Below are positions 1 to 23,469 of a DNA stretch of 32,000 nt, in pieces. Source of the stretch: Candidatus Nitrosopumilus koreensis AR1 (lineage in GTDB: Archaea; Thermoproteota; Nitrososphaeria; Nitrososphaerales; Nitrosopumilaceae); contig NC_018655.1 of the NCBI RefSeq assembly GCF_000299365.1, positions 600,001-632,000 on the forward strand. The letters are read 5' to 3'. How positions within the stretch are numbered: position 1 is the stretch's first letter; each line of letters starts with the position of its first letter. Both the position numbers and the translations under genes were made by a program. The notes beneath the pieces were generated by a model. It was not told where the DNA came from. It made no database searches and worked only from the letters and a program-made list of their open reading frames with translations.

Positions 1-683
1 TCTCTACTGCTGTCAACTTGCCTTTGGCAAATCTTTTGTCTGATGATTCACCTGAACGTGTTTTAAAATTAGTAAATTCAATGGGAATTGATGATGAGAC
101 TCGTGTTGTTGTTTATGATGATACTTTTGGTGCATTGGCATCTAGAGTTGCATGGACCTTAGAATATCTTGGACATTCAGACGTGAGTTTGCTTGAAACA
201 ACTTACAGTCATTGGAAATCTCTTGGACTTGAAAACGACTCTCAAACCCCTGAAGTGCATAACAAGGAACACTCTTTGAACTTGCAGCCTGATATTTTGG
301 CCACATCTGACTATTTGGACTCTGCAAAACAAAGAGATGATGTGATTCTAATTGATAATAGGGAAAGACTCAATTTCCTTGAACAACATATTCCTGGTGC
401 AATTAGCCTTCCATACAGAACTCTTGCATCAAATGATAAAATTTTACGCTCAAAAGAAGACATGAAACGTTTACTTGATAATCGTGGTATAACTGGTGAT
501 TCTGAAATTATTACATATTGTGGAAGTGTGGGTACTCTATCTGGATTGGCATATTATGCATTAAAAACTGCAGGATTGCCTAATGCCAAATTATATGTTC
601 GTTCTTTTAAAGAATGGAAAAACCTTCAGAAACCTACTGAAAAACAAGAAGATGCAAATTATTGGGATTTATCTGCTGAATAA
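1..683 (+). CDS. Rhodanese-domain sulfurtransferase (thiosulfate/3-mercaptopyruvate type), 5' end cut by window edge
   Basis: ORF 18..683 stays open upstream to nt 3, so the TTG at 18 is probably internal. Tandem rhodanese layout with HIPGAISLP and a catalytic-loop Cys in YCGSVGTLSG. Confidence 0.8.
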   Translation, partial: STAVNLPLANLLSDDSPERVLKLVNSMGIDDETRVVVYDDTFGALASRVAWTLEYLGHSDVSLLETTYSHWKSLGLENDSQTPEVHNKEHSLNLQPDILATSDYLDSAKQRDDVILIDNRERLNFLEQHIPGAISLPYRTLASNDKILRSKEDMKRLLDNRGITGDSEIITYCGSVGTLSGLAYYALKTAGLPNAKLYVRSFKEWKNLQKPTEKQEDANYWDLSAE

Positions 684-1805
684 TTAAGAAATTTCGTTTC
701 TAAGTTTTTTTGTAATTGTAACTTCTACATTATCAAATAACGTCAACATTTTTTCTTTGTTTTCAGCAATATAGTCGTCCCCTCTATCTTTTAATCTGAT
801 TTTCCATAATCTTATTTCTCTGTGTTCATCAAAGAAGTTTTCAATCATAGGCTCTCCTGATTTTTTAGGATCAACAAACTCATCAAATATTTCAATTGCT
901 TTTTCTGCATTTTCTTCTTCAATTGCTTCTTTTGCATCTTGGATTGCTTGACTTAGTTCTTTAAGATTTTTCACTGGTTTTGGCAATCTCTTTCGTGTGA
1001 TTCCAAACAATCCCTTCTTTTCTTTACCCATTTTTTCTGCAACATTTGGAGCAAGATCATAAACAGGAATTTTACTTAGACCGTCTCTTTTTTCATTTTG
1101 AACAATCAATCCCTTTTCTAATAATTTTCTCAATGCACCTTCTGCATCAGCTTTATCTAGAAATGTTGTCCATACAATTGAACCCAGTGTGTGGTATCCT
1201 TGTCTTATTGACTCTAAAACTACAACTTCTTGAATTCTTTTGAATCCTTCTTCAATTCTGACATTAACAAAATCTTTATCTCTGATTGATTTTCTTGCAT
1301 TCTTTACATCAATTTCGATTGAACGTTTCAATGCTTCTAGTGATTCTGGAACCTGATTGAGTAATGATAGAAAACATGCTTTGTTATACCAAGCCATTCC
1401 GTATGTTGGGTCTGTTTCAATTGCTTTCTCAACTGAATCCAGAGCTTTAGAATAATTTTTTTGTTCATAATGTACTAATCCTTTAAGATTCCATGCTTCG
1501 GGATTTGTAACATCGATATCTAGAATTTTATCATAAACTTTCAATGCTTCGTTATGATCATCAAGATGAAATCTTGCATATCCTAATTTCAATAATGTCT
1601 CTACATTGTCTGGATCTATTCTCAAAGCTTGTTCAAAGGCTACGATGGCTTCTTCGAGTTTTTCATCTGCCATCAAATTAACTCCTTTTTTAAATAATTT
1701 CTTGCGATTATAGTCGATATCAACTAGTGATGTCTCTTCTGTTTTTTCTTCTATCTTGAATTCTTCTTCTTTTTCCTTTGATTTTTTCCCAAACGGTTTT
1801 TTCAC
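684..1805 (-). CDS. TPR-repeat protein with non-TPR C-terminal half
   Basis: Consecutive 34-aa TPR units (AIVAFEQALRIDPDN, ALKVYDKILDIDVTNPEAW, ALDSVEKAIETDPTYGMAWYNKA). Start is either GTG at 1805 (K/E-rich leader) or ATG at 1673. Confidence 0.85.
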   Translation of the reverse strand: MKKPFGKKSKEKEEEFKIEEKTEETSLVDIDYNRKKLFKKGVNLMADEKLEEAIVAFEQALRIDPDNVETLLKLGYARFHLDDHNEALKVYDKILDIDVTNPEAWNLKGLVHYEQKNYSKALDSVEKAIETDPTYGMAWYNKACFLSLLNQVPESLEALKRSIEIDVKNARKSIRDKDFVNVRIEEGFKRIQEVVVLESIRQGYHTLGSIVWTTFLDKADAEGALRKLLEKGLIVQNEKRDGLSKIPVYDLAPNVAEKMGKEKKGLFGITRKRLPKPVKNLKELSQAIQDAKEAIEEENAEKAIEIFDEFVDPKKSGEPMIENFFDEHREIRLWKIRLKDRGDDYIAENKEKMLTLFDNVEVTITKKLRNEIS

Positions 1806-1904
1806 TAGCTCAAAATGCGCTTTTATCTAGATAAATACTATCCTCTGCGAGCCTGAAAATAATCTAATTTGGAATCTAATCATGCGATCTAAATACAGAA
1901 ATAC

Positions 1905-3218
1905 TTGAAGTATAAACAAACGATTGTGGCATCTCAGTCTAAATTAGAAATCCAAGGTCAGGCACCATTTAAACAGTCGGGTGTATATGAGGTTCAAATT
2001 GCAATTGTTGGAAGTAGACCTTCTGATGAACAGATTAAATCAAAACAATTTACTTCTCTATGGCGTGGTAATTTCCATCTTAGGGTAAAAGATGGATTCT
2101 TTTCTGAAACTATTGGTTCTGCTGAAAACCCAATTCCATCTTCTGTGTTAGAGCTAGATACAATTTGGATAATTGTGACTGATTTGTTTTCATCATTGCA
2201 TTCTGTCTTTGATGTTCCATTATCAAAACCAAAATCTCAATCTACTCAAACATTTACTGAAACTAAAGATTCTACTGAAATCAAAACAAGTTCTGAAACT
2301 CCTAAACAAAAACGTGTGACTACAACAACTGCTGGAACTTCAGGACCTACAGGTCCTTCCGGTGACAAAGGCCCTACTGGTCCACAAGGTCCACCCGGTG
2401 ACAAAGGTCCACAAGGTCCTCCAGGACAAATGGGTCCACCCGGTGACAAAGGCCCTGAAGGTCCACAAGGTCCACCCGGTGACAAAGGCCCAACAGGAGA
2501 TCGTGGTTCTTCTGGTGACAAAGGAATTACTGGTGATAAAGGACTAACTGGTGACAAAGGAATTACTGGTGATAAAGGTGATAAAGGTGACAAAGGAGTA
2601 CCTGGTCCTCCTGGAGAAAAAGGTGACAAAGGACCAACAGGTCCGATTGGTGACAAAGGCCCAACAGGACTAAAAGGTCCGATTGGTGACAAAGGAGAAA
2701 AAGGCCCAACAGGTCTCCCAGGTGACAAAGGATTAACTGGATTAAGAGGGTCTCCTGGAGATAAAGGTGACAAAGGTCCACAAGGTCCACCCGGTGACAA
2801 AGGATTAACTGGTCCCATTGGTACTCCTGGAGAAAAAGGTCCAACAGGACAAGTAGGTGTTCAAGGAGAAAAAGGAATTCAAGGTAAACCTGGTCCTATT
2901 GGAGAAAAAGGTCCATTAGGTCCACAAGGAGAAAAAGGTCCATTAGGTCCACCTGGTCCACTTGGCGACAAAGGACTTTGGAGCTGCCTTTCTTGTTGCG
3001 GCTTTTCTCTTTGGAGCTGCTTTCTTAGCTGCAGTTTTCTTTTAGCTGCCTTTCTCTTTGGAGCTGCCTTTCTTGTTGCGGCTTTTCTCTTTGGAGCGGC
3101 TTTTCGTTTAGCTGCCATGTCGAATCGACATTTTCATTGTTTTTCAGTGGTTAAACTAAAGAAATTTACACAAATTGATTACAATTTATCAAGCATTTTT
3201 TTTAAAAATGATCCTTGA
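1905..3218 (+). CDS. Collagen-like triple-helix repeat protein (N-terminal globular domain, S/T/K linker, 71 G-X-Y triplets, hydrophobic Cys/Phe/Ala tail)
   Basis: Residues 144-357 are unbroken G-X-Y (GDK, GPP, GPQ, GPT, GEK...). There is no in-frame ATG before the repeat, so the start must be TTG 1905 or GTG 1926. The 3' extent is uncertain (see findings). Confidence 0.75.
2334..2975 (+). repeat. Coding G-X-Y (9-nt-multiple) tandem repeat region, 71 triplets
   Basis: Counted by hand from the translation. Recurrent ggtgacaaagg / ggtccacaaggtccacccggtgacaaagg DNA motifs. Confidence 0.9.
2879..3118 (-). CDS. Alternative reading: small K/R/A/P-rich basic protein ([28 protein letters not shown]...), frame-broken
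   Basis: ATG at 3118 opens an 11-residue basic repeat with ordinary codon usage. The C-terminal half of the tracked frame is antisense-collagen noise. The -1 frame restores the repeat and stops at 2943. Mutually exclusive with the + strand tail unless the genes overlap. Confidence 0.25.
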   Translation of the reverse strand: MAAKRKAAPKRKAATRKAAPKRKAAKRKLQLRKQLQREKPQQERQLQSPLSPSGPGGPNGPFSPCGPNGPFSPIGPGLP

Positions 3219-3229
3219 TCGTGATATTT

Positions 3230-3406
3230 TCAATAAACACTTTCAGCTGATGGCCTTCTACCTTGTAACCAACTAGTTTTTCCACATATTGTGCATTTGT
3301 ATTTTCTTCTACGCTTGTATGTTGCCATTTCTGGCAGAAAAACTAATTGTTGTTTTGTTTTTGTCATGCAAAATTTACACCATCTGTGTTCTGTTTCTTG
3401 ATCCAT
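3230..3406 (-). CDS. 58-aa zinc-ribbon protein (not in ORF track)
   Basis: Hand translation gives MDQETEHRWCKFCMTKTKQQLVFLPEMATYKRRRKYKCTICGKTSWLQGRRPSAESVY. It has CxxC...CxxC and a basic core. The ATG lies 8 nt after the DRG stop on the same strand. Confidence 0.5.
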   Translation of the reverse strand: MDQETEHRWCKFCMTKTKQQLVFLPEMATYKRRRKYKCTICGKTSWLQGRRPSAESVY

Positions 3407-3414
3407 TTTGTATT

Positions 3415-4524
3415 TTATGTTCCGCGAGTTTTGATAATTGTCAATACATCTTCATCTTGTAATATGTGACTTAATCCTACTCTTTGTCCTCCAAACTTAA
3501 CGCTTTTACCCCACACCAATCCGTATCTGAACTCTCTTTTCATTCTTCGATGGAGTTTGTTACAAATATCTTCAACTGAATCTCCTTCTCTGGCAATTAA
3601 TGGTTCTTTGTAATCGGTTTCACCACCTTTTGGGCGCATGTAAATCCTGATGAATTTTAATTTTTCATAAATTTTTTCTTTTAACAAATCAATATTGATA
3701 TCTGAATTTGCTGACACTTCAATGACGTCTGTTTTGATTTTAGTCTTTAGATCTTTCAAAAACTTTTCATCAACTAAATCAATTTTATTCAAAACTGTAA
3801 GCGCTTTTGAATAACTAATGTTTCCTGCAATGTGATCAGCTAATTGTTCTGATGTTATATCTTCTCTTACAACAACTCGTGCACTTACAATTCCGTAAAG
3901 GTGCAGAATGTCTTTTAGATGTTTTTCAGTAATTTTTGTAAGTTTGACTTGTTGTGCAATTGCAATTCCTCCCATTGATGCTTTTTCAATTGTAATGTTT
4001 GGCGGTAATTGATTAAGTCTTATTCCTATGTTTCCTAATTCGGTTATCAATACATCTTCGTGATATGGCTGAAATACATCTAACACTAACAAAACAAGAT
4101 CTGCTGTTCTAGCCACTGACAGAATTCTTTTTCCTAACCCCTTCCCCGTAGATGCTCCTTTAATAATTCCTGGAAGATCTAGAACCTGAATTTTTGCTCC
4201 TCTGTATTCCATCATTCCTGGAACCACCGTAAGTGTAGTAAATTGAAAAGCACCCACAGCTGATTTTGCACCTGTTAATTTGTTGAGCAATGTGGATTTT
4301 CCAACACTTGGCAATCCGATAAATACCACCGTTGCATCTCCACTCCTTCTTACATCGAATCCATCTGATTTCATTCCTGATTTTTTTGCAACATTGTCTT
4401 CTTGCTCTCGCTTGAGCTTTGCAATTTTTGCTTTGAGTAATCCTAAGTGATGCTCTGTAGCTTTATTGATTTGTGTTCTTGCCATTTCATCTTGAATGGC
4501 TTTAATTTTTTCAGGAATTCCCAA
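3415..4524 (-). CDS. DRG-family (Obg-like) GTPase with C-terminal TGS domain
   Basis: G1 GLPSVGKSTLLNKLTG, G3 DLPGII, G4 NKIDL, and a C-terminal TGS-like VKFGGQRVGLSHILQDEDVLTI. Confidence 0.95.
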   Translation of the reverse strand: MGIPEKIKAIQDEMARTQINKATEHHLGLLKAKIAKLKREQEDNVAKKSGMKSDGFDVRRSGDATVVFIGLPSVGKSTLLNKLTGAKSAVGAFQFTTLTVVPGMMEYRGAKIQVLDLPGIIKGASTGKGLGKRILSVARTADLVLLVLDVFQPYHEDVLITELGNIGIRLNQLPPNITIEKASMGGIAIAQQVKLTKITEKHLKDILHLYGIVSARVVVREDITSEQLADHIAGNISYSKALTVLNKIDLVDEKFLKDLKTKIKTDVIEVSANSDINIDLLKEKIYEKLKFIRIYMRPKGGETDYKEPLIAREGDSVEDICNKLHRRMKREFRYGLVWGKSVKFGGQRVGLSHILQDEDVLTIIKTRGT

Positions 4525-4526
4525 CG

Positions 4527-4754
4527 TTATTCACTTTTTACTGATTTCTTTTCAAATAAAACCGTATTATTTTTTTCAATCTTTTGAATTCTGCTTATTG
4601 GTATTATCTGATTGTCATCTGATTGAATCAAAAATTCTGGCAATGTTGTCTCTATTGTTCTGTTAAAATTTCGATAGAAAATTTTGTATGTTTTTGCATC
4701 ATCTGCATACATAGCTTTACTAAAAATTTCTTCTATGATCCCTTTTTTCACCAT
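4527..4754 (-). CDS. Small DUF504/UPF0248-like protein
   Basis: 75 aa. The C-terminal IIPISRIQKIEKNNTVLFEKK resembles the IP-x-HRI...W-x-R signature of UPF0248. Its stop lies 2 nt before the DRG start. Confidence 0.5.
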   Translation of the reverse strand: MVKKGIIEEIFSKAMYADDAKTYKIFYRNFNRTIETTLPEFLIQSDDNQIIPISRIQKIEKNNTVLFEKKSVKSE

Positions 4755-4861
4755 TATGATGGAAATGTCTCATTAACTAACAATATGTATTTGCTTTATG
4801 TCTTGCATATCTTTGTTTTTCCAGTAGTAGCAAATATTATTCAGTGGAAAAAATCACAGAT

Positions 4862-5557
4862 ATGAAAAAAAGAACGTTTGCTGTAGATATTGATGGAACT
4901 ATTACTGAAAATGGTGGGGGGAGAATACATCTTGATGCACTTGAAGCATTAAGACGCCTAACAAATATGGGCCATGATGTAATTTTTGTTACTGGCCGAT
5001 CATCAGTAGAGGGATTTTTACTATCTGTGTTTGGTGGAACCACAAAAGTTGCTGTGGGAGAAAATGGTGGCTGTATTACTTTGGATTCAAACGATCATGT
5101 TTTGTTAGGGAATATTGATGAGTGCAAACATGCATTTAATGTTCTAAAAAATAATCTCAAAAATGTCGAAGAAAAATACGTTTTTCCTAGAATGACTGAG
5201 GTTGTATTGCAGAGAACTTTTGATCTTGATGTCGCACAAAAGATTTTGTCTGAAAACGATCTAGATGTGATATTATCTGATAGTCAATACGCATATCACA
5301 TAAATTCTGCAGGAATAGACAAGGGATCTGGATTTAGGGAAATAATGAAGAGATTTTCAATTACAAGTGATGATGTAATTGCAATTGGAGATAGTGCAAC
5401 TGATGTGCCTTTGTTTAAAGTTGCAAAAACAAGTGTTGCTTTAGGAAATGCTTCTGATGCTGTAAAATCTGAGGCTACAATGACTGTTTCTGCACATGCC
5501 GGTGATGGTGTTCTTGAAGCATTAGATAAATTAGCACCTAGATTATCTGAGATATAG
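4862..5557 (+). CDS. HAD-superfamily hydrolase, archaeal phosphoglycolate phosphatase / SPP-like (subfamily IIB)
   Basis: Motif I FAVDIDGTIT and motif IV GDSATDVPLF. ATG 4862 is preferred over the tracked GTG 4844. Confidence 0.85.
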   Translation: MKKRTFAVDIDGTITENGGGRIHLDALEALRRLTNMGHDVIFVTGRSSVEGFLLSVFGGTTKVAVGENGGCITLDSNDHVLLGNIDECKHAFNVLKNNLKNVEEKYVFPRMTEVVLQRTFDLDVAQKILSENDLDVILSDSQYAYHINSAGIDKGSGFREIMKRFSITSDDVIAIGDSATDVPLFKVAKTSVALGNASDAVKSEATMTVSAHAGDGVLEALDKLAPRLSEI

Positions 5558-5558
5558 T

Positions 5559-7445
5559 ATGACTTTCAAATCTATAATTGATGAAATTGAAAATAATCTA
5601 AACAAGATATTGTCTGAACTTTCTATAATTGATGTAAAATTTTCTGTAGAGCCTGCTAAACCTGGTTTTGGAGATGTTAGTTCAAATGTTTCATTCTTGT
5701 TAGCAAAACAACTCAAAAAAAGTCCTAAAGAAATATCAGAAATGTTATCTGAAAAATATCTTCAATGTGCTAGTACATTAGTTTCAAAATCTGAACCACA
5801 TCCCTCTGGATATCTTAACTTTTATGCCGACTGGAAAAAACTAAATCAATTAATTTTGTCTGAATCAAATCTGCCTGAATTTGGAGATGTTGATATTGGA
5901 AAAAATTCTACCATTGTAGTTGAACATACAAGTGTTAATCCCAACAAAGCATTGCATATTGGTCACATACGTAATATCATAATTGGCGACACTATTTCTA
6001 GAATCTTAAAAAAGGCAAACTATAACGTTAATGTTCTAAATTACATTGATGATTCTGGTCTTCAAGTTGCAGATATCATTGTTGGTTTCAAACATTTTGG
6101 GTTTGAAATAGAACCTCCTAGCGGGAAGAAATTTGATCATTATTGTGGAGATGATGTTTATGTAAAAACAACTGAAAAATATGAACAAGACCCAAGTCTT
6201 GAACAAATCAGAAAAAATGTGCTAAAGGAACTAGAAGATGGAAATTCTGATACTGCTCAATTTGCAGATAAGATCACTCGTCGTGTATTGTCAAATCAAC
6301 TTGAGACCTGTTGGAATCTTGGGGTGTCATATGACTGTCTGAACTTTGAGTCTCAGATAATCCGATCTGGATTGTGGAACCATATTTTTGAAAAACTCAA
6401 AGAAATGCATTTGATAGAATTTGAAAATGATGGAAAAAATGCTGGCTGCTGGGTGATTCGTGGTGAAGGTAAGGAGGAGGATAAAGTGATAGTTAGGAGT
6501 AATGGGACTGCTACGTATATTGCAAAAGACATTCCGTATGCTGCATGGAAATTGGGATTGCTTGATGATCCATTCCATTATGAAAAATATGAAAAAGAAC
6601 AACCAAACGCTCGTGTTTTGTGGCAAACCACATTAAATGAAAGTGCTTCAAAATCTCAGAATTTTTCAGGTGATAAGGTAATTACTGTAATTGATTCTCG
6701 TCAAGCAAGACTGCAAAAAATTATCACATCGCTTATGGGAAAATTCAAATCCATTCCTGATGCATATGTTCATCTTGGATATGAGTCAGTTACTTTGAGC
6801 TCGGATACTGCAAAAATCCTTGGATTAGAAACTGATGGAAAGCAAGCTCAGATGTCTGGTAGGAAGGGATTGTATGTTAATGCAGATTCCGTTTATGACC
6901 TTTTGAAAGAAAAAACAATTGAAGAAACAAAGAAGAGACATTCAGAAATGAGTGATTCTGAAATCAAAATGATTGCTCATAATGTGTCTGTAGCTACACT
7001 GCGTTATGAGATGATCAAACAAGATTTAGACAAAATTATTGCATTTGATTTAACAAAATCTCTAAGCTTGGAAGGGGACACTGCTCCTTACATACAATAT
7101 ACACATGCTCGTGCCTCAAGAATCTTGGAAAAGTCTGGTAAGGCACCTTCTATCGATGTTGATTTCTCTTTACTAAAAGAACCATCTGAAATTGATTTAG
7201 TAAAGACAATTGGTCTTTTTGATTTACAAGTTCGCGATGCTGCAAATAATTTATCCCCAAAAGTAATTTCCAGATATTGTCATGATTTGGCTGTTGCCTT
7301 CAACTCTTTTTATGAAAAATCTAAAGTTCTTGATTTGGGAGATGAGCAACTAGAAAACTCTCGTTTGTGTTTGGTTAATTCGTTTAAGATTGTTATTGAA
7401 AAGGCATTAAATCTTCTAGGTATAACTGCACCTGATAAGATGTAA
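5559..7445 (+). CDS. argS: Arginine--tRNA ligase
   Basis: Class-I HIGH motif in NPNKALHIGHIRN, a C-terminal DALR-type anticodon-binding region, 628 aa. Confidence 0.97.
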   Translation: MTFKSIIDEIENNLNKILSELSIIDVKFSVEPAKPGFGDVSSNVSFLLAKQLKKSPKEISEMLSEKYLQCASTLVSKSEPHPSGYLNFYADWKKLNQLILSESNLPEFGDVDIGKNSTIVVEHTSVNPNKALHIGHIRNIIIGDTISRILKKANYNVNVLNYIDDSGLQVADIIVGFKHFGFEIEPPSGKKFDHYCGDDVYVKTTEKYEQDPSLEQIRKNVLKELEDGNSDTAQFADKITRRVLSNQLETCWNLGVSYDCLNFESQIIRSGLWNHIFEKLKEMHLIEFENDGKNAGCWVIRGEGKEEDKVIVRSNGTATYIAKDIPYAAWKLGLLDDPFHYEKYEKEQPNARVLWQTTLNESASKSQNFSGDKVITVIDSRQARLQKIITSLMGKFKSIPDAYVHLGYESVTLSSDTAKILGLETDGKQAQMSGRKGLYVNADSVYDLLKEKTIEETKKRHSEMSDSEIKMIAHNVSVATLRYEMIKQDLDKIIAFDLTKSLSLEGDTAPYIQYTHARASRILEKSGKAPSIDVDFSLLKEPSEIDLVKTIGLFDLQVRDAANNLSPKVISRYCHDLAVAFNSFYEKSKVLDLGDEQLENSRLCLVNSFKIVIEKALNLLGITAPDKM

Positions 7446-7448
7446 TGT

Positions 7449-7506
7449 CCCAGTGAGTGCACCACTAATACTGGCTGTCTCACTGGGTGTTGGCGTGCAA
7501 ACCAAC
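7449..7506. other. GC-enriched double hairpin between convergent genes (possible 3' structure or small RNA)
   Basis: CCCAGTGAG (7449-7457) pairs perfectly with CTCACTGGG (7479-7487). It is followed by GTTGG (7489-7493) / CCAAC (7502-7506). Confidence 0.3.
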
Positions 7507-7568
7507 CATGTTTGATGTTCTTATCTTAAATCTATTGTTATTTGGAAAATGATTTGATTTCTTTTTAA

Positions 7569-8165
7569 TCAATATACTGTAAGAAATAATTGCATTTCAA
7601 ACATGGTTATCAATTTTGCCTGTTGATATATTATGGAATTCATTATGCTTGGTTTTTCTATTATATGCCCTAATCCTAATGCATGACCTAGTTCGTGTCG
7701 GATCAACATTTTTAATTGTGTTGGAGTAATCTCATCTGAATCATAAATACTCACAAAAGCATTTTGTATTTTCCCGTCTTTGTATGTTAATTCTGTAAAT
7801 CCGTCATATTTTGAATTTATTTCATCTTTTAGGTATATCGTGATGTAATTTTGATTGTTAATGTGTCCAATTTGTAATGTTGGTATTTGTGAGCTAAACT
7901 TTGTGTTTGTATTTTTTATCGCATTATTCCAACTTGTAAATTGAGTTTTTGTTTGTCCACCATTGTTTGATTTTATTACTTCTTCCACAATGTCTATTTT
8001 GTAGGGTTGCACTGCTGCATCTCTCATGATTAGAACTGAAATTGTATCTTCTTGAATGTCCCATGGGGTAATGATGCTTTGTTCATCATATTCCATTCCG
8101 TATGCGTAATTGCTTATAGTAATCATAGCTACCGCTATTACTATTGCCAATGCCCCTACTCTCAC
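7569..8165 (-). CDS. Secreted or membrane-anchored metzincin zinc metalloprotease (matrixin/M10-like)
   Basis: HELGHALGLGH (HExxHxxGxxH) followed by a Met-turn candidate SIMNS. Hydrophobic N-terminal signal/anchor. GTG start. Confidence 0.8.
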   Translation of the reverse strand: MRVGALAIVIAVAMITISNYAYGMEYDEQSIITPWDIQEDTISVLIMRDAAVQPYKIDIVEEVIKSNNGGQTKTQFTSWNNAIKNTNTKFSSQIPTLQIGHINNQNYITIYLKDEINSKYDGFTELTYKDGKIQNAFVSIYDSDEITPTQLKMLIRHELGHALGLGHIIEKPSIMNSIIYQQAKLITMFEMQLFLTVY

Positions 8166-8339
8166 TGTGATAACTTAGTTTGCTCATATATTATTATGAT
8201 CATTCTATATTTTCAATTTTTAGATTTTTTTGGGATTAAAACATACATTTGTATTTTTTATTATATATGTGAATTTACATTTGTACAATTTTTTAATTAA
8301 TTGCCTTTTATTCTTATGACCCCTCCACAACTTGTTCGA

Positions 8340-8423
8340 ATGTGTTATAAGTTACTTATGTTCATAACATATGAGAGGGTGCATATTAGTAGTCCCTAGA
8401 CCCACTATATTACTAATGTACCC
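8340..8423. other. Two adjacent hairpins in the intergenic spacer
   Basis: Hairpin 1 spans 8340-8372 (9 pairs including one G-T). Hairpin 2 spans 8377-8423 (GGGTGCAT/ATGTACCC plus TAGTA/TACTA with a 2-nt bulge). The G-T pairs are only tolerated on the + strand. Confidence 0.25.
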
Positions 8424-8478
8424 TATCTGTTTCTTATTTTCTAAAACTGGGGTTTCTTGTTATATCTCATTTGTAGTT

Positions 8479-8991
8479 CTATCTGTACATTGATTTCTCA
8501 GTTGTTTCATCCATTGGATTTGCTTGTCCTGAAAAACCACTAAAATTAGAACGCAGGATTTTTTGAATATGTGCTGTTACTCTTGCAACATTGTCCCACG
8601 TGTCATGAAATGAGACTCTGTCAAGAATTTGTTCATCAACATGTGAGAATATTGCTAATCCTGCAATGTTTTCTTTATCTTTGACCCATTGGTGCCCAAC
8701 TTTGCAAATTGTACAAATTTCACTAATGTCCATAACTGCTTTTGAAAATGATGGGTTTTTCATTACCAATAATTTTGCATCGTCTTCGGGAAATCTCATA
8801 TTTACATTTAAATGAATTCTGTCTTTTCTGTTTGCATTTTTGCTAATTATGACATTTGTGCCAACTCTAAATTGCCATTCAATTAACTTGCTTTTCTCTC
8901 TGACTTTTTCTGTTTGATCTTCATAATTGATATTGGTTATTTTGATAAATTCTTCAACAAGATTTTTCATTTCTTCTGAAGTCTTTGCCAT
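8479..8991 (-). CDS. Hypothetical protein (170 aa)
   Basis: Long ORF, last gene of a co-oriented run of small genes. No motif I can name with confidence. Confidence 0.6.
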   Translation of the reverse strand: MAKTSEEMKNLVEEFIKITNINYEDQTEKVREKSKLIEWQFRVGTNVIISKNANRKDRIHLNVNMRFPEDDAKLLVMKNPSFSKAVMDISEICTICKVGHQWVKDKENIAGLAIFSHVDEQILDRVSFHDTWDNVARVTAHIQKILRSNFSGFSGQANPMDETTEKSMYR

Positions 8992-9040
8992 GAAACCACT
9001 CGTAATATCTACAATATATGCATATTATAGAAAAAAGAGA

Positions 9041-9178
9041 CTAATGGCTGTGTCCACAACCACAGGAATCATGTCCACCATGACCTTCTGTTTCTTTTCC
9101 TGCGCATTTAGAACATTTGTCTGAACCGGTTGGTGAGAAAAATCCTATGCCGCATGAAACGCATTTTTGATTTGCCAT
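9041..9178 (-). CDS. 45-aa zinc-ribbon peptide with His/Cys-rich C-terminal tail (not in ORF track)
   Basis: Hand translation gives MANQKCVSCGIGFFSPTGSDKCSKCAGKETEGHGGHDSCGCGHSH. It has CxxC...CxxC and a GHGGHDSCGCGHSH tail. Confidence 0.45.
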   Translation of the reverse strand: MANQKCVSCGIGFFSPTGSDKCSKCAGKETEGHGGHDSCGCGHSH

Positions 9179-9227
9179 ATATCTAATCAAAAATTACTAT
9201 ATTTAATGATAGATAGAAAATATCTTG

Positions 9228-9368
9228 TTATTTGAGATATTTGTCAAGTAGTTCATTGATTACTCGTGAGTAACTTACAGAACTGTTTGATTCTCTTATC
9301 ATTTTTGATTGGCGTTGTCTTAGTTTCTTATCTAATTCATCGTCTATCATGATTGTAACTCTTTTCAT
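9228..9368 (-). CDS. 46-aa ribbon-helix-helix (CopG/Arc-like) DNA-binding protein (not in ORF track)
   Basis: Hand translation gives MKRVTIMIDDELDKKLRQRQSKMIRESNSSVSYSRVINELLDKYLK. The pattern is strand (KRVTIMIDDEL), helix, helix. Confidence 0.6.
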   Translation of the reverse strand: MKRVTIMIDDELDKKLRQRQSKMIRESNSSVSYSRVINELLDKYLK

Positions 9369-9385
9369 TGCACTGTTTATTGCAC
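9367..9385 (-). promoter_or_regulatory. Direct repeat ATTGCAC-N5-ATTGCAC (12-nt period) overlapping the RHH start codon; candidate operator
   Basis: Exact 7-mers at 9367-9373 and 9379-9385. On the - strand this reads GTGCAAT-aaaca-GTGCAATG, where the ATG is the RHH start. Confidence 0.25.
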
Positions 9386-9441
9386 AATTATGAACTTAAG
9401 AAGTATGGACATTTTCTAATTGATCTTGTTCCATTGTGGAA

Positions 9442-9783
9442 TTATTCTGATGGTCTTGCATTTCCAATTTCACCTTTCTTTTGGAATTCTCTATATTCGC
9501 CAATTATTGAATTGCATTTTTCACAGACGTATTGACCTCTTTCAATTAAGATCAGATTGTCTGCAACCTCCTCATTGGGGCTCTCCTCTAACTGAATTTT
9601 TGGGGGATTGTCAAACTCTGTCTCGCAATTATTGCAATAATGTTTGAGCATTTTTTCAGTTTCAATTTTTCCTATTGGGGCTAGAAATAATTTCCCCACT
9701 CCTAAATCTGCTTTTTTTGCTTGCTCATCAGTAAGGTCTGCTATCACGTATCCGCCAGAGCCTTGAACTTTTAATTCTGTCAT
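9442..9783 (-). CDS. Zinc-ribbon protein (113 aa), function unknown
   Basis: CNNC...CEKC pairs. First gene of the co-oriented 9783->8479 run. Confidence 0.65.
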   Translation of the reverse strand: MTELKVQGSGGYVIADLTDEQAKKADLGVGKLFLAPIGKIETEKMLKHYCNNCETEFDNPPKIQLEESPNEEVADNLILIERGQYVCEKCNSIIGEYREFQKKGEIGNARPSE

Positions 9784-9847
9784 TTCATATTGCTCTTGAT
9801 TTTGGTATTAAAATACTATTTGTGTTGGGATGGATTGTTTAGAATAC

Positions 9848-9947
9848 AACGAGACACACGGAAAGCATGTTTTTTCTAGGACGTTGACCTAACATGAGAT
9901 GCTTTCCATACCGTTATTCTACGACGCAGAATAACAGTTTTCTCGTT
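9848..9947. ncRNA. Candidate structured RNA, three-way junction (~100 nt)
   Basis: Closing stem AACGAGA (9848-9854) / TCTCGTT (9941-9947). Hairpin 1 GGAAAGCAT (9860-9868) / ATGCTTTCC (9899-9907). Hairpin 2 GTTATTCT (9913-9920) / AGAATAAC (9928-9935). All pairs are Watson-Crick, so the strand is unresolved. Confidence 0.35.
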
Positions 9948-10155
9948 ACATATTATACGTCAAAATGATATTTAACCATATCTTGATTCTCACCTAATGC
10001 CAACCTTGAATTAAAAAATTTATTGAGATGTAAATTGATGAATACTTTGGACATACACTAAATTGCTTGTCCTTTGAATAGACACACTTGAAATCATTGT
10101 TGTTTTATTATGTGAAAATCAGTAGATTCTTATCTAAAATTTTTCAGCAAATCCT

Positions 10156-10992
10156 ATGGATAAAATAAAACAAAATTCTCCTGTGTTATTCTACTTTAAT
10201 CACTCAAAAAAATGGCTTGTAAAGATTACAAAAAAAGAGTCCCTTCATACTCATATTGGTGTCATCAAACATTCTGATGCTATAGGAAAAGAGTATGGCT
10301 CACGACTTGTTACAAATAAAGACAAGTATGTCTACCTGCTCAAACCCACGATGTATGACTATGTTATGAAAATACAACATGGTACTCAGATAGTTTATCC
10401 AAAGGATATTGGATATATTATTGCAAGAGCAGGAATTGAGAGTGGGCAAAAGATTCTTGAAATTGGAACTGGAAGTGGTTCCTTAACTTCTTGTGTGGCA
10501 AGTATTGTAAAACCACGAGGACATGTTTACACTTTTGATGTTGATGAAAATTTTATGAAAATTGCAGAAAAAAATATTCAAAAAGCTGGCGTTTCAAAAT
10601 ATGTGACACAGCATAATTTAGATTTGAAAACCGCAAAAAAGATGCCTCTTGATGATATGGATGTTGCTTTAATTGATCTTGGCGATCCTTGGTTGGTAAT
10701 TCCTCAAGTGCGAAAAATGCTTAAGGGAAGTGGTGCCATATTTGCGATTTGTCCTACAATGAATCAACTAGAAAAACTAACTACAAGTTTAGTTGAAAAT
10801 GAGTTCACGGATATTGAATCAACTGAGCATATTTTACGTACTATAGAGGCACGAGAAGGAAAAACTAGACATTCTTTTCAAGGAATTGGCCATACAACCT
10901 ATCTATGCTATGCAAGAAAAGCGTTTTTTGGTAGAGAAACAAAAAAATCAACAAAACCCAAGGCTACCAAAACTACCAAAAAGTCTTCTTAA
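10156..10992 (+). CDS. trmI: tRNA (adenine-N1)-methyltransferase, TrmI/GCD14 family
   Basis: IVYPKDIGYII followed by SAM motif LEIGTGSGSLT and DLGDPW. Lys-rich C-terminal tail. Confidence 0.85.
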   Translation: MDKIKQNSPVLFYFNHSKKWLVKITKKESLHTHIGVIKHSDAIGKEYGSRLVTNKDKYVYLLKPTMYDYVMKIQHGTQIVYPKDIGYIIARAGIESGQKILEIGTGSGSLTSCVASIVKPRGHVYTFDVDENFMKIAEKNIQKAGVSKYVTQHNLDLKTAKKMPLDDMDVALIDLGDPWLVIPQVRKMLKGSGAIFAICPTMNQLEKLTTSLVENEFTDIESTEHILRTIEAREGKTRHSFQGIGHTTYLCYARKAFFGRETKKSTKPKATKTTKKSS

Positions 10993-23328: not shown

Positions 23329-23349
23329 GGAGAAAATCTGAGATCTTTT

Positions 23350-23431
23350 GCCGGGATAGCCAAGTGGTAAGGCGGCCGTCTCGAAAACGGCTACGCGCAA
23401 GCGTGCAGGGGTTCGAATCCCTTTCCCGGCG
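23350..23431 (+). tRNA. tRNA-Ser (anticodon CGA), type II with long variable arm, no encoded CCA
   Basis: Acceptor GCCGGGA/TCCCGGC with discriminator G. Anticodon stem GCCGT/ACGGC with loop CTCGAAA. Variable-arm hairpin ACGC-GCAA-GCGT. T-loop TTCGAAT. Confidence 0.95.
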
Positions 23432-23469
23432 TGTTCATAATTATTAAGACCCATCAAGAGATAATCCAT

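Follow-up and report, generated by a model that had tools for sequence, protein, structure and literature searches.

The window analysed here, a 32,000-nt stretch of Candidatus Nitrosopumilus koreensis AR1 (NC_018655.1, positions 600,001 to 632,000), carries an open reading frame of 437 aa (1905..3218, plus strand) whose central part is a collagen-like G-X-Y repeat. The neighbouring genes code for rhodanese, TPR, DRG GTPase, HAD and ArgRS proteins. These are Nitrosopumilus core genes, in line with the archaeal core-gene neighbourhood noticed in the preliminary description of this DNA. The DRG protein is identical to AFS80598.1, encoded by the complete Ca. Nitrosopumilus koreensis AR1 chromosome. 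The gene directly upstream is divergent and encodes a 373-aa TPR protein (684..1805, minus strand; Pfam TPR_1, E=1.2e-26). Rfam and tRNA scans gave nothing near the locus, their sole find being a tRNA-Ser at 23349-23432. Coding of the repeat region on the minus strand, where antisense ORFs 2246-2818 and 2879-3118 give X-P-X repeats, was also considered. It was rejected because the N-terminal domain, the Pfam match and the C-terminal domain all lie on the plus strand.

The collagen-like gene is found in at least 152 species genomes of Nitrosopumilaceae, marine ammonia-oxidising archaea, as confirmed by tblastn. Eighty loci were fetched, among which 61 genes are complete and 77 loci have enough upstream DNA for comparison. 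The complete genes code for 441-612 aa, and the closest relatives of the window gene have 88-92% identity. The divergent TPR gene lies directly upstream, at a distance of 109-218 nt, in 72/77 loci. The window gene has the N-terminal domain, the linker, the G-X-Y run and the divergent TPR gene that characterise this family, which is uncurated and whose members in MAGs are named 'collagen-like protein' by NCBI.

Comparison across the family places the gene start at GTG 1926, not at TTG 1905. The preliminary description had left the choice between these two codons, having seen no in-frame ATG ahead of the repeat, in which the sequence agrees. The equivalent of position 1926 is GTG in 65/77 loci and ATG in the other 12. 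TTG 1905 fails as a family start: its frame is lost through a 1-nt indel in 6/77 loci, and an in-frame TAA separates it from the start in three (L012, L045 and L080). The 30 nt ahead of the start are near-identical across the 77 loci. An 18-species alignment of the divergent intergenic region (1806..1925) reveals two invariant blocks, TTTATCTAGATAAATAC (1821-1838) and GCGATCTAAATACAGAAATACTTGAA (1884-1910), which are presumed to be promoter or regulatory elements. TTG 1905 sits within the second.

No gene corresponds to the 437-aa ORF, which is a chimera read across a spacer-less join between two draft contigs. In an exact identity test, the last 2975 nt of AJVJ01000023.1 equal window 1-2975 and the first 7549 nt of AJVJ01000024.1 equal window 2976-10524, both with 0 mismatches. 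The two belong to assembly GCA_000328925.1 of a Nitrosopumilus koreensis-like strain, and no spacer separates them in the window. Identity and contig ranges thus set the artificial junction at 2975..2976, inside the G-X-Y repeat, where the window lacks some 0.9-1.0 kb of genome. Alignment to L001, a complete chromosome, puts window 3-2978 at 3077-6049 and window 2976-6322 at 6959-10305, with 909 nt absent from the window. Contig AJVI01000011.1 of a sister assembly runs 693 nt further past window position 2975. It is identical to the window up to that point (2975/2975 nt; 350/350 aa of the gene) and goes on with 54 further triplets and the conserved C-terminal domain, giving a full gene of 545 aa with 125 uninterrupted triplets. 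The genuine gene of the window is 3'-truncated: its first 350 codons (1926..2975, plus strand) run from the GTG start to the end of AJVJ01000023.1, exactly where NCBI annotates a 350-residue partial gene. The 71 triplets that had been taken as the size of the gene's repeat are the first 71 of 125.

Residues 358-437 of the 437-aa ORF (2976..3218, plus strand) form a spurious tail that comes from the other contig and is non-coding on this strand. It results from reading in antisense a minus-strand ORF that starts at ATG 3118, the 5' end of a lysine/alanine-rich neighbour. This fragment (2976..3118, minus strand), cut by the contig start and convergent to the collagen-like gene, belongs to a conserved K/R/A/P-repeat basic protein gene, of which NCBI annotates 47 aa as a partial gene extending past the contig start. 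In L001 the gene is complete and codes for 114 aa ending ...AAAKRRR, and it is found downstream of the collagen-like gene in at least 35/60 loci. The tail contains 6 Cys and reaches a Kyte-Doolittle maximum over 19 aa of 2.65, versus at most 1.53 in the 61 genuine family members. It has no counterpart in these 61 complete homologues, every one of which ends ...EEQIKLMSYLY. The ORF owes its hydrophobic end to the joining of two draft contigs in mid-repeat, and the unusual topology that the preliminary description read from it is an artefact of this join; the real C-terminal domain is soluble, helical and 34 aa long.

The converse view, that the ORF is genuine and that a deletion of about 0.9 kb in this strain fused the repeat to a hydrophobic C-terminal anchor, yielding a tail-anchored fibre, is very improbable and close to refuted. 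The frame is open throughout 1905-3218, the tail is strongly hydrophobic, and the overlap of only about 3 nt (CTT) at the breakpoint relative to L001 is compatible with a deletion by illegitimate recombination. Yet one deposited contig stops and the next begins at precisely the nucleotide of the breakpoint, the sister assembly continues the repeat, and the tail is antisense to a conserved ATG-initiated gene. Its internal DNA repeats lie 80 nt apart and are hence mutually out of frame. None of the 437-, 430-, 350- and 545-aa products had an exact match on look-up, which for the 437- and 430-aa forms covered about 15 billion proteins. A real deletion with 3-nt microhomology was dropped as the origin of the breakpoint, both halves being separate deposited contigs. 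ORFs across spacer-less contig joins can mimic exotic fusion proteins, and repeats are where assemblies break; public copies of the collagen-like gene are nearly all 'partial'.

The collagen triple-helix repeat of the window gene (2334..2975, plus strand) spans residues 144-357 of the ORF, that is 71 full triplets and the Gly of the next, all without interruption as first described. When the residues of this protein are shuffled 20,000 times, G-X-Y runs reach 9 triplets at most. The Pfam search proposed in the preliminary description gives PF01391 (Collagen) a score of 123.5 bits on the window ORF, above the gathering cut-off of 27.2 (E=2.9e-36), and of 207.7 bits on the full-length sister protein. 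Repeat number, whose variation it had also suggested to follow together with synteny, ranges from 91 to 146 triplets in the 61 complete genes (median 123), totalling 7372 triplets with zero interruptions. Proline makes up 20% of the residues and, among Y-Gly-X triplets, KGD and KGE together account for 4.7%, QGP for 6.7% and TGP for 6.3%. Tryptic peptides from the repeat are very short.

Non-collagenous segments flank the repeat on both sides. The N-terminal domain and the S/T/K-rich linker ahead of it, both noticed initially, are confirmed, and the domain has 81 homologues at E<=8e-26. This conserved domain of about 100 aa (1926..2240, plus strand) has a mean column identity of 79% (alignment A1), and its AlphaFold2 monomer is predicted with good confidence as a seven-strand beta-sandwich (pLDDT 90.2, pTM 0.82). 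It is covered by no Pfam or NCBIfam family and a fold search finds no PDB or BFVD match at E<=1e-3, the best, weak matches being Ig-like adhesin or carbohydrate-enzyme domains (5fce SgrA, TMq 0.55). The same domain heads another protein, P0105, where it is followed by TPR, DUF4011, an AAA_11/AAA_12 helicase and an MTES_1575 nuclease (E=1.5e-25). A second context, P0109, is weak evidence, its putative transmembrane segment scoring below KD 1.6. The linker (2241..2333, plus strand), read from the sequence as variable and rich in S/T/K/P/E, has 23-47 aa between residue 101 and the G-X-Y start in the 61 complete homologues and is poorly conserved.

The sister protein gives the complete layout: an N-terminal domain of about 100 aa, an S/T/K-rich linker of about 35 aa, 125 triplets and a 34-aa C-terminal domain. 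The latter is a helix-turn-helix in the sense of a helical hairpin, GMSSEQKALFKELLEILTEKNVISTEEQIKLMSYLY, whose helices (24-39 and 45-53 of the AlphaFold monomer) have pLDDT >90. All complete family members end ...MSYLY, and the C-terminal pattern ...EQKALFKELLEILT.KN.I.TEEQIKLMSYLY is present in the sister assembly and missing in the window. This absence is an assembly gap, not a biological difference, because the contig ends at 2975. The hairpin is seen only in the Nitrosopumilaceae collagen-like family and is adjoined by a conserved segment containing GPPGPP.

In collagens, nucleation and zipping from the C- to the N-terminus and K-G-D/E salt bridges are established, and they have been reported for archaeal collagen-like proteins (PMC11923368). 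We privilege the hypothesis, with a probability of roughly 70%, that the family is an uncharacterised prokaryotic collagen-like protein that assembles from its C-terminus into a homotrimeric rod of about 107 nm, probably cytoplasmic, and of which the window ORF is a chimeric reading. Three chains would join through the C-terminal hairpin, possibly as a six-helix bundle, as far as AlphaFold monomers allow one to suggest. The conserved GPPGPP segment beside the hairpin would nucleate the triple helix, which would then zip toward the N-terminus into a rigid rod stabilised, in place of hydroxyproline, by proline, Lys/Asp/Glu pairs and Thr/Gln. At the opposite end, the three N-terminal domains would make up a head for binding a partner, and the adjacent TPR protein is the most plausible candidate. 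Binding to the TPR protein rests on gene adjacency and a single fusion protein, which are not proof.

The G-X-Y region might instead form no triple helix in vivo and serve as an extended, charged, disordered or polyproline-II spacer. The low proportions of proline and of KGD and KGE triplets go in this direction, and we know of no prolyl hydroxylase in these organisms. However, bacterial collagens of similar composition, such as Scl2, fold stably without hydroxyproline. The absence of any Gly interruption throughout the repeats of 61 species implies selection for triple-helix packing and not for disorder, and the GPPGPP nucleation segment lies against a conserved domain of oligomerisation type. 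We regard a spacer devoid of triple helix as improbable.

Sec, Tat and class-III signals, transmembrane segments, LPXTG and PGF-CTERM are found in 0/61 complete homologues. The lack of a signal peptide noted at the outset agrees with the first 30 residues not being hydrophobic (mean KD 0.09), and no PGF occurs in the last 40 residues of the 61 homologues, as an archaeosortase-type anchor would have. Since export and anchor signals are lacking and the N-terminal domain also heads the TPR-helicase-nuclease protein, we lean somewhat towards the full-length protein being a cytoplasmic strut, tether or spacer over a surface fibre. A more elaborate version of this proposal is that of an intracellular collagen, in which the rod and the TPR protein together would serve the cytoskeleton as a strut, spacer or tether, linking for instance the envelope to the nucleoid in cells some 200 nm across. 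It is offered tentatively. If true, we would know of no earlier case of a structural collagen-like protein in the cytoplasm of a prokaryote, and collagen biology would gain a new compartment and a new domain of life.

An extracellular fibre, either a BclA-type hair-like nap or an adhesin, could also be built by the full-length protein through non-classical export or S-layer attachment, with the N-terminal domain as anchor or as distal ligand-binding head. To our knowledge, the characterised prokaryotic collagen-like proteins (Scl1/2, BclA, Lcl) are all on cell or spore surfaces, and BclA too has no signal peptide. The S/T-rich linker is typical of extracellular glycosylated stalks, the weak fold matches of the N-terminal domain point to adhesins or carbohydrate enzymes, and a collagen-like 'adhesin' is reported among hypo-osmotically induced cell-surface genes in a member of the Nitrosopumilaceae (PMC13037477). 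Against this stand the missing export signals, transmembrane segments and anchors in all complete homologues, the occurrence of the N-terminal domain at the head of a helicase-nuclease, and the lack of a signal peptide in the partner TPR protein as well. In addition, the signal-less assembly of BclA needs a mother-cell compartment, which these archaea lack. A surface fibre is possible and the less favoured of the two locations; it would represent an envelope component so far overlooked in a nitrifier of global importance.

Collagen-like repeats are common in phage tail fibres and giant-virus fibrils, and the GC content of the repeat (0.50) departs from that of the window (0.35), two points that would suit fibre material derived from a virus or provirus, as the preliminary description had proposed. 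The GC shift is the one expected from GGN and CCN codons. A viral origin is highly unlikely, since the N-terminal domain has no relative in 2.9 million IMG/VR contigs, in 50,697 GenBank phage records (tblastn) or, by fold, in BFVD (E<=1e-3), the gene keeps the same place between the same housekeeping genes in 72/77 loci, and no integrase or virion genes are nearby.

The family is best read as prokaryotic collagen-like proteins that are so far uncharacterised and have two family-specific terminal domains. It shares with Scl1 and Scl2 of Streptococcus pyogenes (NF038330 and NF038329) a hydroxyproline-free, uninterrupted, charged G-X-Y rod and a flanking non-collagenous trimerising domain, trimerisation being predicted here. 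The V domain of Scl2 is a helical hairpin that assembles into a six-helix bundle, and the archaeal C-terminal hairpin is plausibly analogous to it. The archaeal family differs by scores below the curated cut-offs, with repeat-only matches (210.7 vs 325 for NF038329; 202.7 vs 400 for NF038330), and by the lack of a signal peptide and of LP.TG (0/61). Its helical domain is C-terminal and 34 aa long, unlike the N-terminal V domain, it has an additional beta-sandwich N-terminal domain and its host is an archaeon.

The C-terminal domain of BclA is a TNF/C1q-like beta-jelly-roll of about 134 aa, whereas the archaeal C-terminus is a 34-aa two-helix hairpin with no TNF/C1q-like fold. BclA of the Bacillus anthracis exosporium (PDB 1WCK) otherwise has the same three-part arrangement, in which a collagen-like region stands between a domain for targeting or another role and a trimerising domain at the C-terminus. 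It too has no signal peptide, and its triplet number varies between strains and species. The archaeal sequence matches 1wck over the repeat alone (E=1.2e-7), and spores and mother-cell compartments are absent from these archaea. Lcl of Legionella pneumophila (NF046116) is likewise a collagen-like protein of variable repeat number. Lcl is secreted, in contrast to the signal-less archaeal protein, which scores 199.8 bits against a cut-off of 500. Animal fibrillar collagens have a long uninterrupted triple-helix region matched by phmmer over the repeat only (collagen alpha-2(I), E=5e-102), and their C-terminal nucleation at a GPP-rich segment with C-to-N zipping (PMC11923368) is what we propose for the archaeal protein. 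The latter lacks the NC1/C-propeptide, the hydroxylation machinery and the secretion signal, and has 375 helical residues versus about 1000.

The literature searched contains no experimental study of the Nitrosopumilaceae family or of any archaeal collagen-like protein. Archaeal examples appear in bulk sequence statistics only (PMC11923368), an MG-II 'collagen-like' report proved unrelated, and PDB 8zxl is a recombinant collagen of no relevance here. A study of Ca. Nitrosotenuis chungbukensis MY2 (PMC13037477), whose supplements gave no hit for 'collagen', counts an 'LPXTG-anchored collagen-like adhesin' among the components of the cell surface, reporting it in the proteome and as induced when salinity is low. 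This protein may be an orthologue of the family. Its name repeats the description of the NCBIfam entry that gives the archaeal proteins their highest score, albeit one under the cut-off. If orthologous, the MY2 name would be an over-annotation, because the archaeal family is devoid of LPXTG.

The ORF 1905..3218(+) holds an unbroken G-X-Y run of 71 triplets at ORF residues 144-357 (nt 2334-2975), in agreement with the preliminary description. Its match to Pfam PF01391 reaches 123.5 bits for a cut-off of 27.2 (E=2.9e-36), and chance does not account for the run since shuffling the residues of the ORF product 20,000 times gave no run longer than 9 triplets. The repeat lifts the GC content, with 0.50 against 0.35 for the window. 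Tandem Repeats Finder detects only degenerate 9/18/27/36/72-nt periodicities in it, showing that this is no recently expanded perfect array.

The hydrophobic C-terminus, from which an unusual topology had been deduced, is by contrast an artefact of read-through across a contig join. Direct comparison gives 0 mismatches between positions 1-2975 and the tail of AJVJ01000023.1, and 0 between positions 2976-10524 and the head of AJVJ01000024.1. Here the window therefore runs through two records that follow one another in assembly GCA_000328925.1, with no spacer between them. AJVJ01000023.1 (6670 nt) carries the TPR gene and ends at position 2975, with a partial gene of 350 residues running off its end; AJVJ01000024.1 has its first base at position 2976 and carries the gene of the DRG GTPase, whose protein sequence is that of Ca. 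Nitrosopumilus koreensis AR1 AFS80598.1. From residue 358 to its end at 437, the "437-aa protein" comes from the other contig, read on the wrong strand, and past residue 357 the ORF frame overlaps an ATG-initiated ORF of the opposite strand (3118..2879). This origin explains the six cysteines of the tail (family median zero), its Kyte-Doolittle 19-aa maximum of 2.65 (family, ≤1.53) and its internal DNA repeats, which have 80 nt spacing and are mutually out of frame. Neither the 437-aa product nor the 430-aa one starting at GTG 1926 is found in the public gene index. Locus L001, taken from a close relative whose chromosome is complete and whose amino-terminal domain (N-domain) is 92% identical, is collinear with the window yet 909 nt longer (window 3-2978 aligns to L001 3077-6049 and window 2976-6322 to L001 6959-10305). 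A real deletion relative to L001, with ~3 nt microhomology, was dropped as an explanation after exact look-ups of the flanking genes. The junction 2975|2976 is not marked by Ns; ~0.9-1.0 kb of real genome is absent there and any feature spanning it is suspect.

The complete gene is present in AJVI01000011.1 of the sister assembly GCA_000328945.1, which is identical at all 2975 shared nt and runs on beyond the break. It codes for 545 residues with 125 unbroken triplets at residues 137-511. The L001 gene has 123 triplets in a product 551-long from TTG or 544-long from the conserved GTG. The codon at the position of GTG 1926 is GTG in 65 and ATG in 12 of 77 loci, and the 350-aa partial call of NCBI likewise begins at 1926. 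The 30 nt 5' of this start are nearly invariant at the DNA level (AGAAATACTTGAAATATACACAAACGATT). They are not consistently coding, because the equivalent of TTG 1905 is out of frame through a 1-nt indel in 6 of the 77 loci and is separated from the start by an in-frame TAA in 3.

At E≤8e-26 the amino-terminal ~100 residues retrieve 81 proteins, almost every one of which is "partial" and bears a Nitrosopumilus, Nitrosarchaeum or Nitrosopumilaceae name; assembly breaks inside the collagen repeat are, as a rule, found in public genomes. Called products P0051 (on a 579-kb contig) and P0060 shift frame within the collagen DNA (VHLVTKVTKVQPV...), a sign that other assemblies too have frameshift errors in this repeat, or pseudogenes. 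With each GTDB species represented by a single genome, a scan recovered the gene in 152 species, and the best 80 of these loci, many on complete long-read chromosomes, were fetched. Sixty complete copies among them and the AJVI copy share one architecture and the same carboxyl-terminal 34 residues (C-domain). These 61 homologues have 91-146 triplets (median 123) with 0 Gly interruptions in 7372 triplets. The counts cluster at 109-112, 119-126 and 141-146, with a lone outlier of 91, which suggests discrete length classes and not free drift. The absolute Gly periodicity and the bounded triplet number argue that selection maintains the integrity and length of a rod. X positions are occupied by P (38%), D (16%) and E (13%), and Y positions by K (29%), Q (15%), T (14%) and P (12%). 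KGD and KGE together make up 4.7% of Y-Gly-X triplets, QGP and TGP 6-7% each; these motifs are reported to be over-represented in archaeal collagen-like proteins, and KGD/KGE to act as salt-bridge stabilisers (PMC11923368).

A profile search with the N-domain against 1.84 billion representatives yields only 70 clusters at E≤1e-3, defining a narrow lineage-specific family. The domain has no model in Pfam or NCBIfam. AlphaFold2 (32-sequence alignment) predicts a seven-strand β-sandwich (pLDDT 90.2, pTM 0.82) for which Foldseek finds no match at E≤1e-3 in PDB (best 5fce, TMq 0.55) or BFVD. The C-domain is predicted to form a two-helix hairpin (pLDDT >90), preceded directly by a conserved collagen segment, and its 22 matches all lie within the Nitrosopumilaceae collagen-like family. 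NCBIfam models of SclB (210.7, cut-off 325), SclA (202.7, cut-off 400) and Lcl (199.8, cut-off 500) match the repeat only, as do PDB sequences. The gene, whose product is already named "collagen-like protein" in NCBI MAG annotations, belongs to the prokaryotic collagen-like proteins as a lineage-specific and so far uncharacterised member outside the Scl, BclA and Lcl families. The virus-derived origin that had been considered is not borne out, as no relative is present in IMG/VR or GenBank phages. The literature searched contains no experimental work on this Nitrosopumilaceae gene.

The C-terminal hairpin could set three chains in register and the GPP-rich segment beside it nucleate the helix, with zipping running C-to-N as described for collagens (PMC11923368). 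With a rise of 0.286 nm per residue, the 125 triplets would give a rod of ~107 nm, and the three N-domains would form a head whose likeliest binding partner is the TPR protein. The missing signal peptide of the preliminary description holds family-wide: none of the 61 complete homologues has a signal peptide, a TM-grade hydrophobic segment, LPXTG or PGF-CTERM. In P0105 (1767 aa; L084 4001-9304, on a 2.47-Mb contig with transposase genes on both flanks) the N-domain is amino-terminal and is followed by TPR, DUF4011, an AAA_11/AAA_12 superfamily-1 helicase and an MTES_1575 nuclease. This fusion gives the N-domain a cytoplasmic context and ties it to TPR repeats, a parallel to the conserved TPR gene next door. 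In P0109 (982 aa; L085 4001-6949) the N-domain lies in the carboxyl-terminal part (residues 687-784), after a signal peptide, an InlB-B-repeat-like ectodomain and a weakly hydrophobic segment. As export and anchor signals are missing and the N-domain has a cytoplasmic context in P0105, we favor a cytoplasmic location of the full-length protein (probability about 0.55). A surface fibre is the less likely alternative. In its favor are a linker rich in S/T, the precedent that every characterised collagen-like protein of bacteria sets, and the report of a collagen-like "adhesin", possibly an orthologue, among hypo-osmotically induced surface genes of Nitrosotenuis MY2 (PMC13037477). The gene is of moderate interest, which would be high only if its product is an intracellular rod.

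Synteny is kept across relatives. Of the 77 loci whose upstream DNA is long enough, 72 have the divergent TPR gene (373 aa; 684-1805 (-)) as immediate upstream neighbour, 109-218 nt off. In the 120-nt intergenic region (1806-1925), the sequences of 18 species agree throughout two blocks, the palindrome TTTATCTAGATAAATAC (1821-1838) and GCGATCTAAATACAGAAATACTTGAA (1884-1910). Both are presumably promoter or regulatory elements; the second could serve as TATA box of a leaderless mRNA or be an element of a 5' UTR. Three copies of the motif AAATAC lie in this region. Residues ~190-260 of the TPR protein (...GYHTLGSIVWTTFLDKADAEGALRKLLEKGLIVQNEKRDGLSKIPVYDL...) look winged-helix-like by eye; if such a fold is present, the protein could regulate the divergent gene besides or instead of acting as binding partner.

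Downstream, the DRG GTPase gene is found in 45 loci, and a convergent gene for a K/R/A/P-repeat basic protein in at least 35 of 60. The latter, 114-aa long in L001 (6761-7105 (-)), is cut by the contig start in the window (2976-3118 (-)), where comparison with L001 and L002 shows a gap of 1 nt near 3035/3036 that shifts its frame, by contig-end error or in reality. This small, extremely basic, conserved protein (30-140 aa in relatives) has no Pfam or NCBIfam family and recalls histone-H1 tails and bacterial AKP-repeat nucleoid proteins. Between its gene and that of the DRG GTPase, a zinc-ribbon-like 58-aa CxxC...CxxC protein (3230-3406 (-)), without Pfam or NCBIfam family, is kept in 20 fetched loci. 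The gene of a 198-aa matrixin-like protease (7569-8165 (-)), with a hydrophobic amino terminus, the metzincin motif HELGHALGLGH and a weak Peptidase_M10/matrixin match, is separated from the collagen-like gene by 4.4 kb; this proximity may be coincidence. A tRNA-Ser (CGA) at 23349-23432 (+) is the sole Rfam or ARAGORN match in the window.
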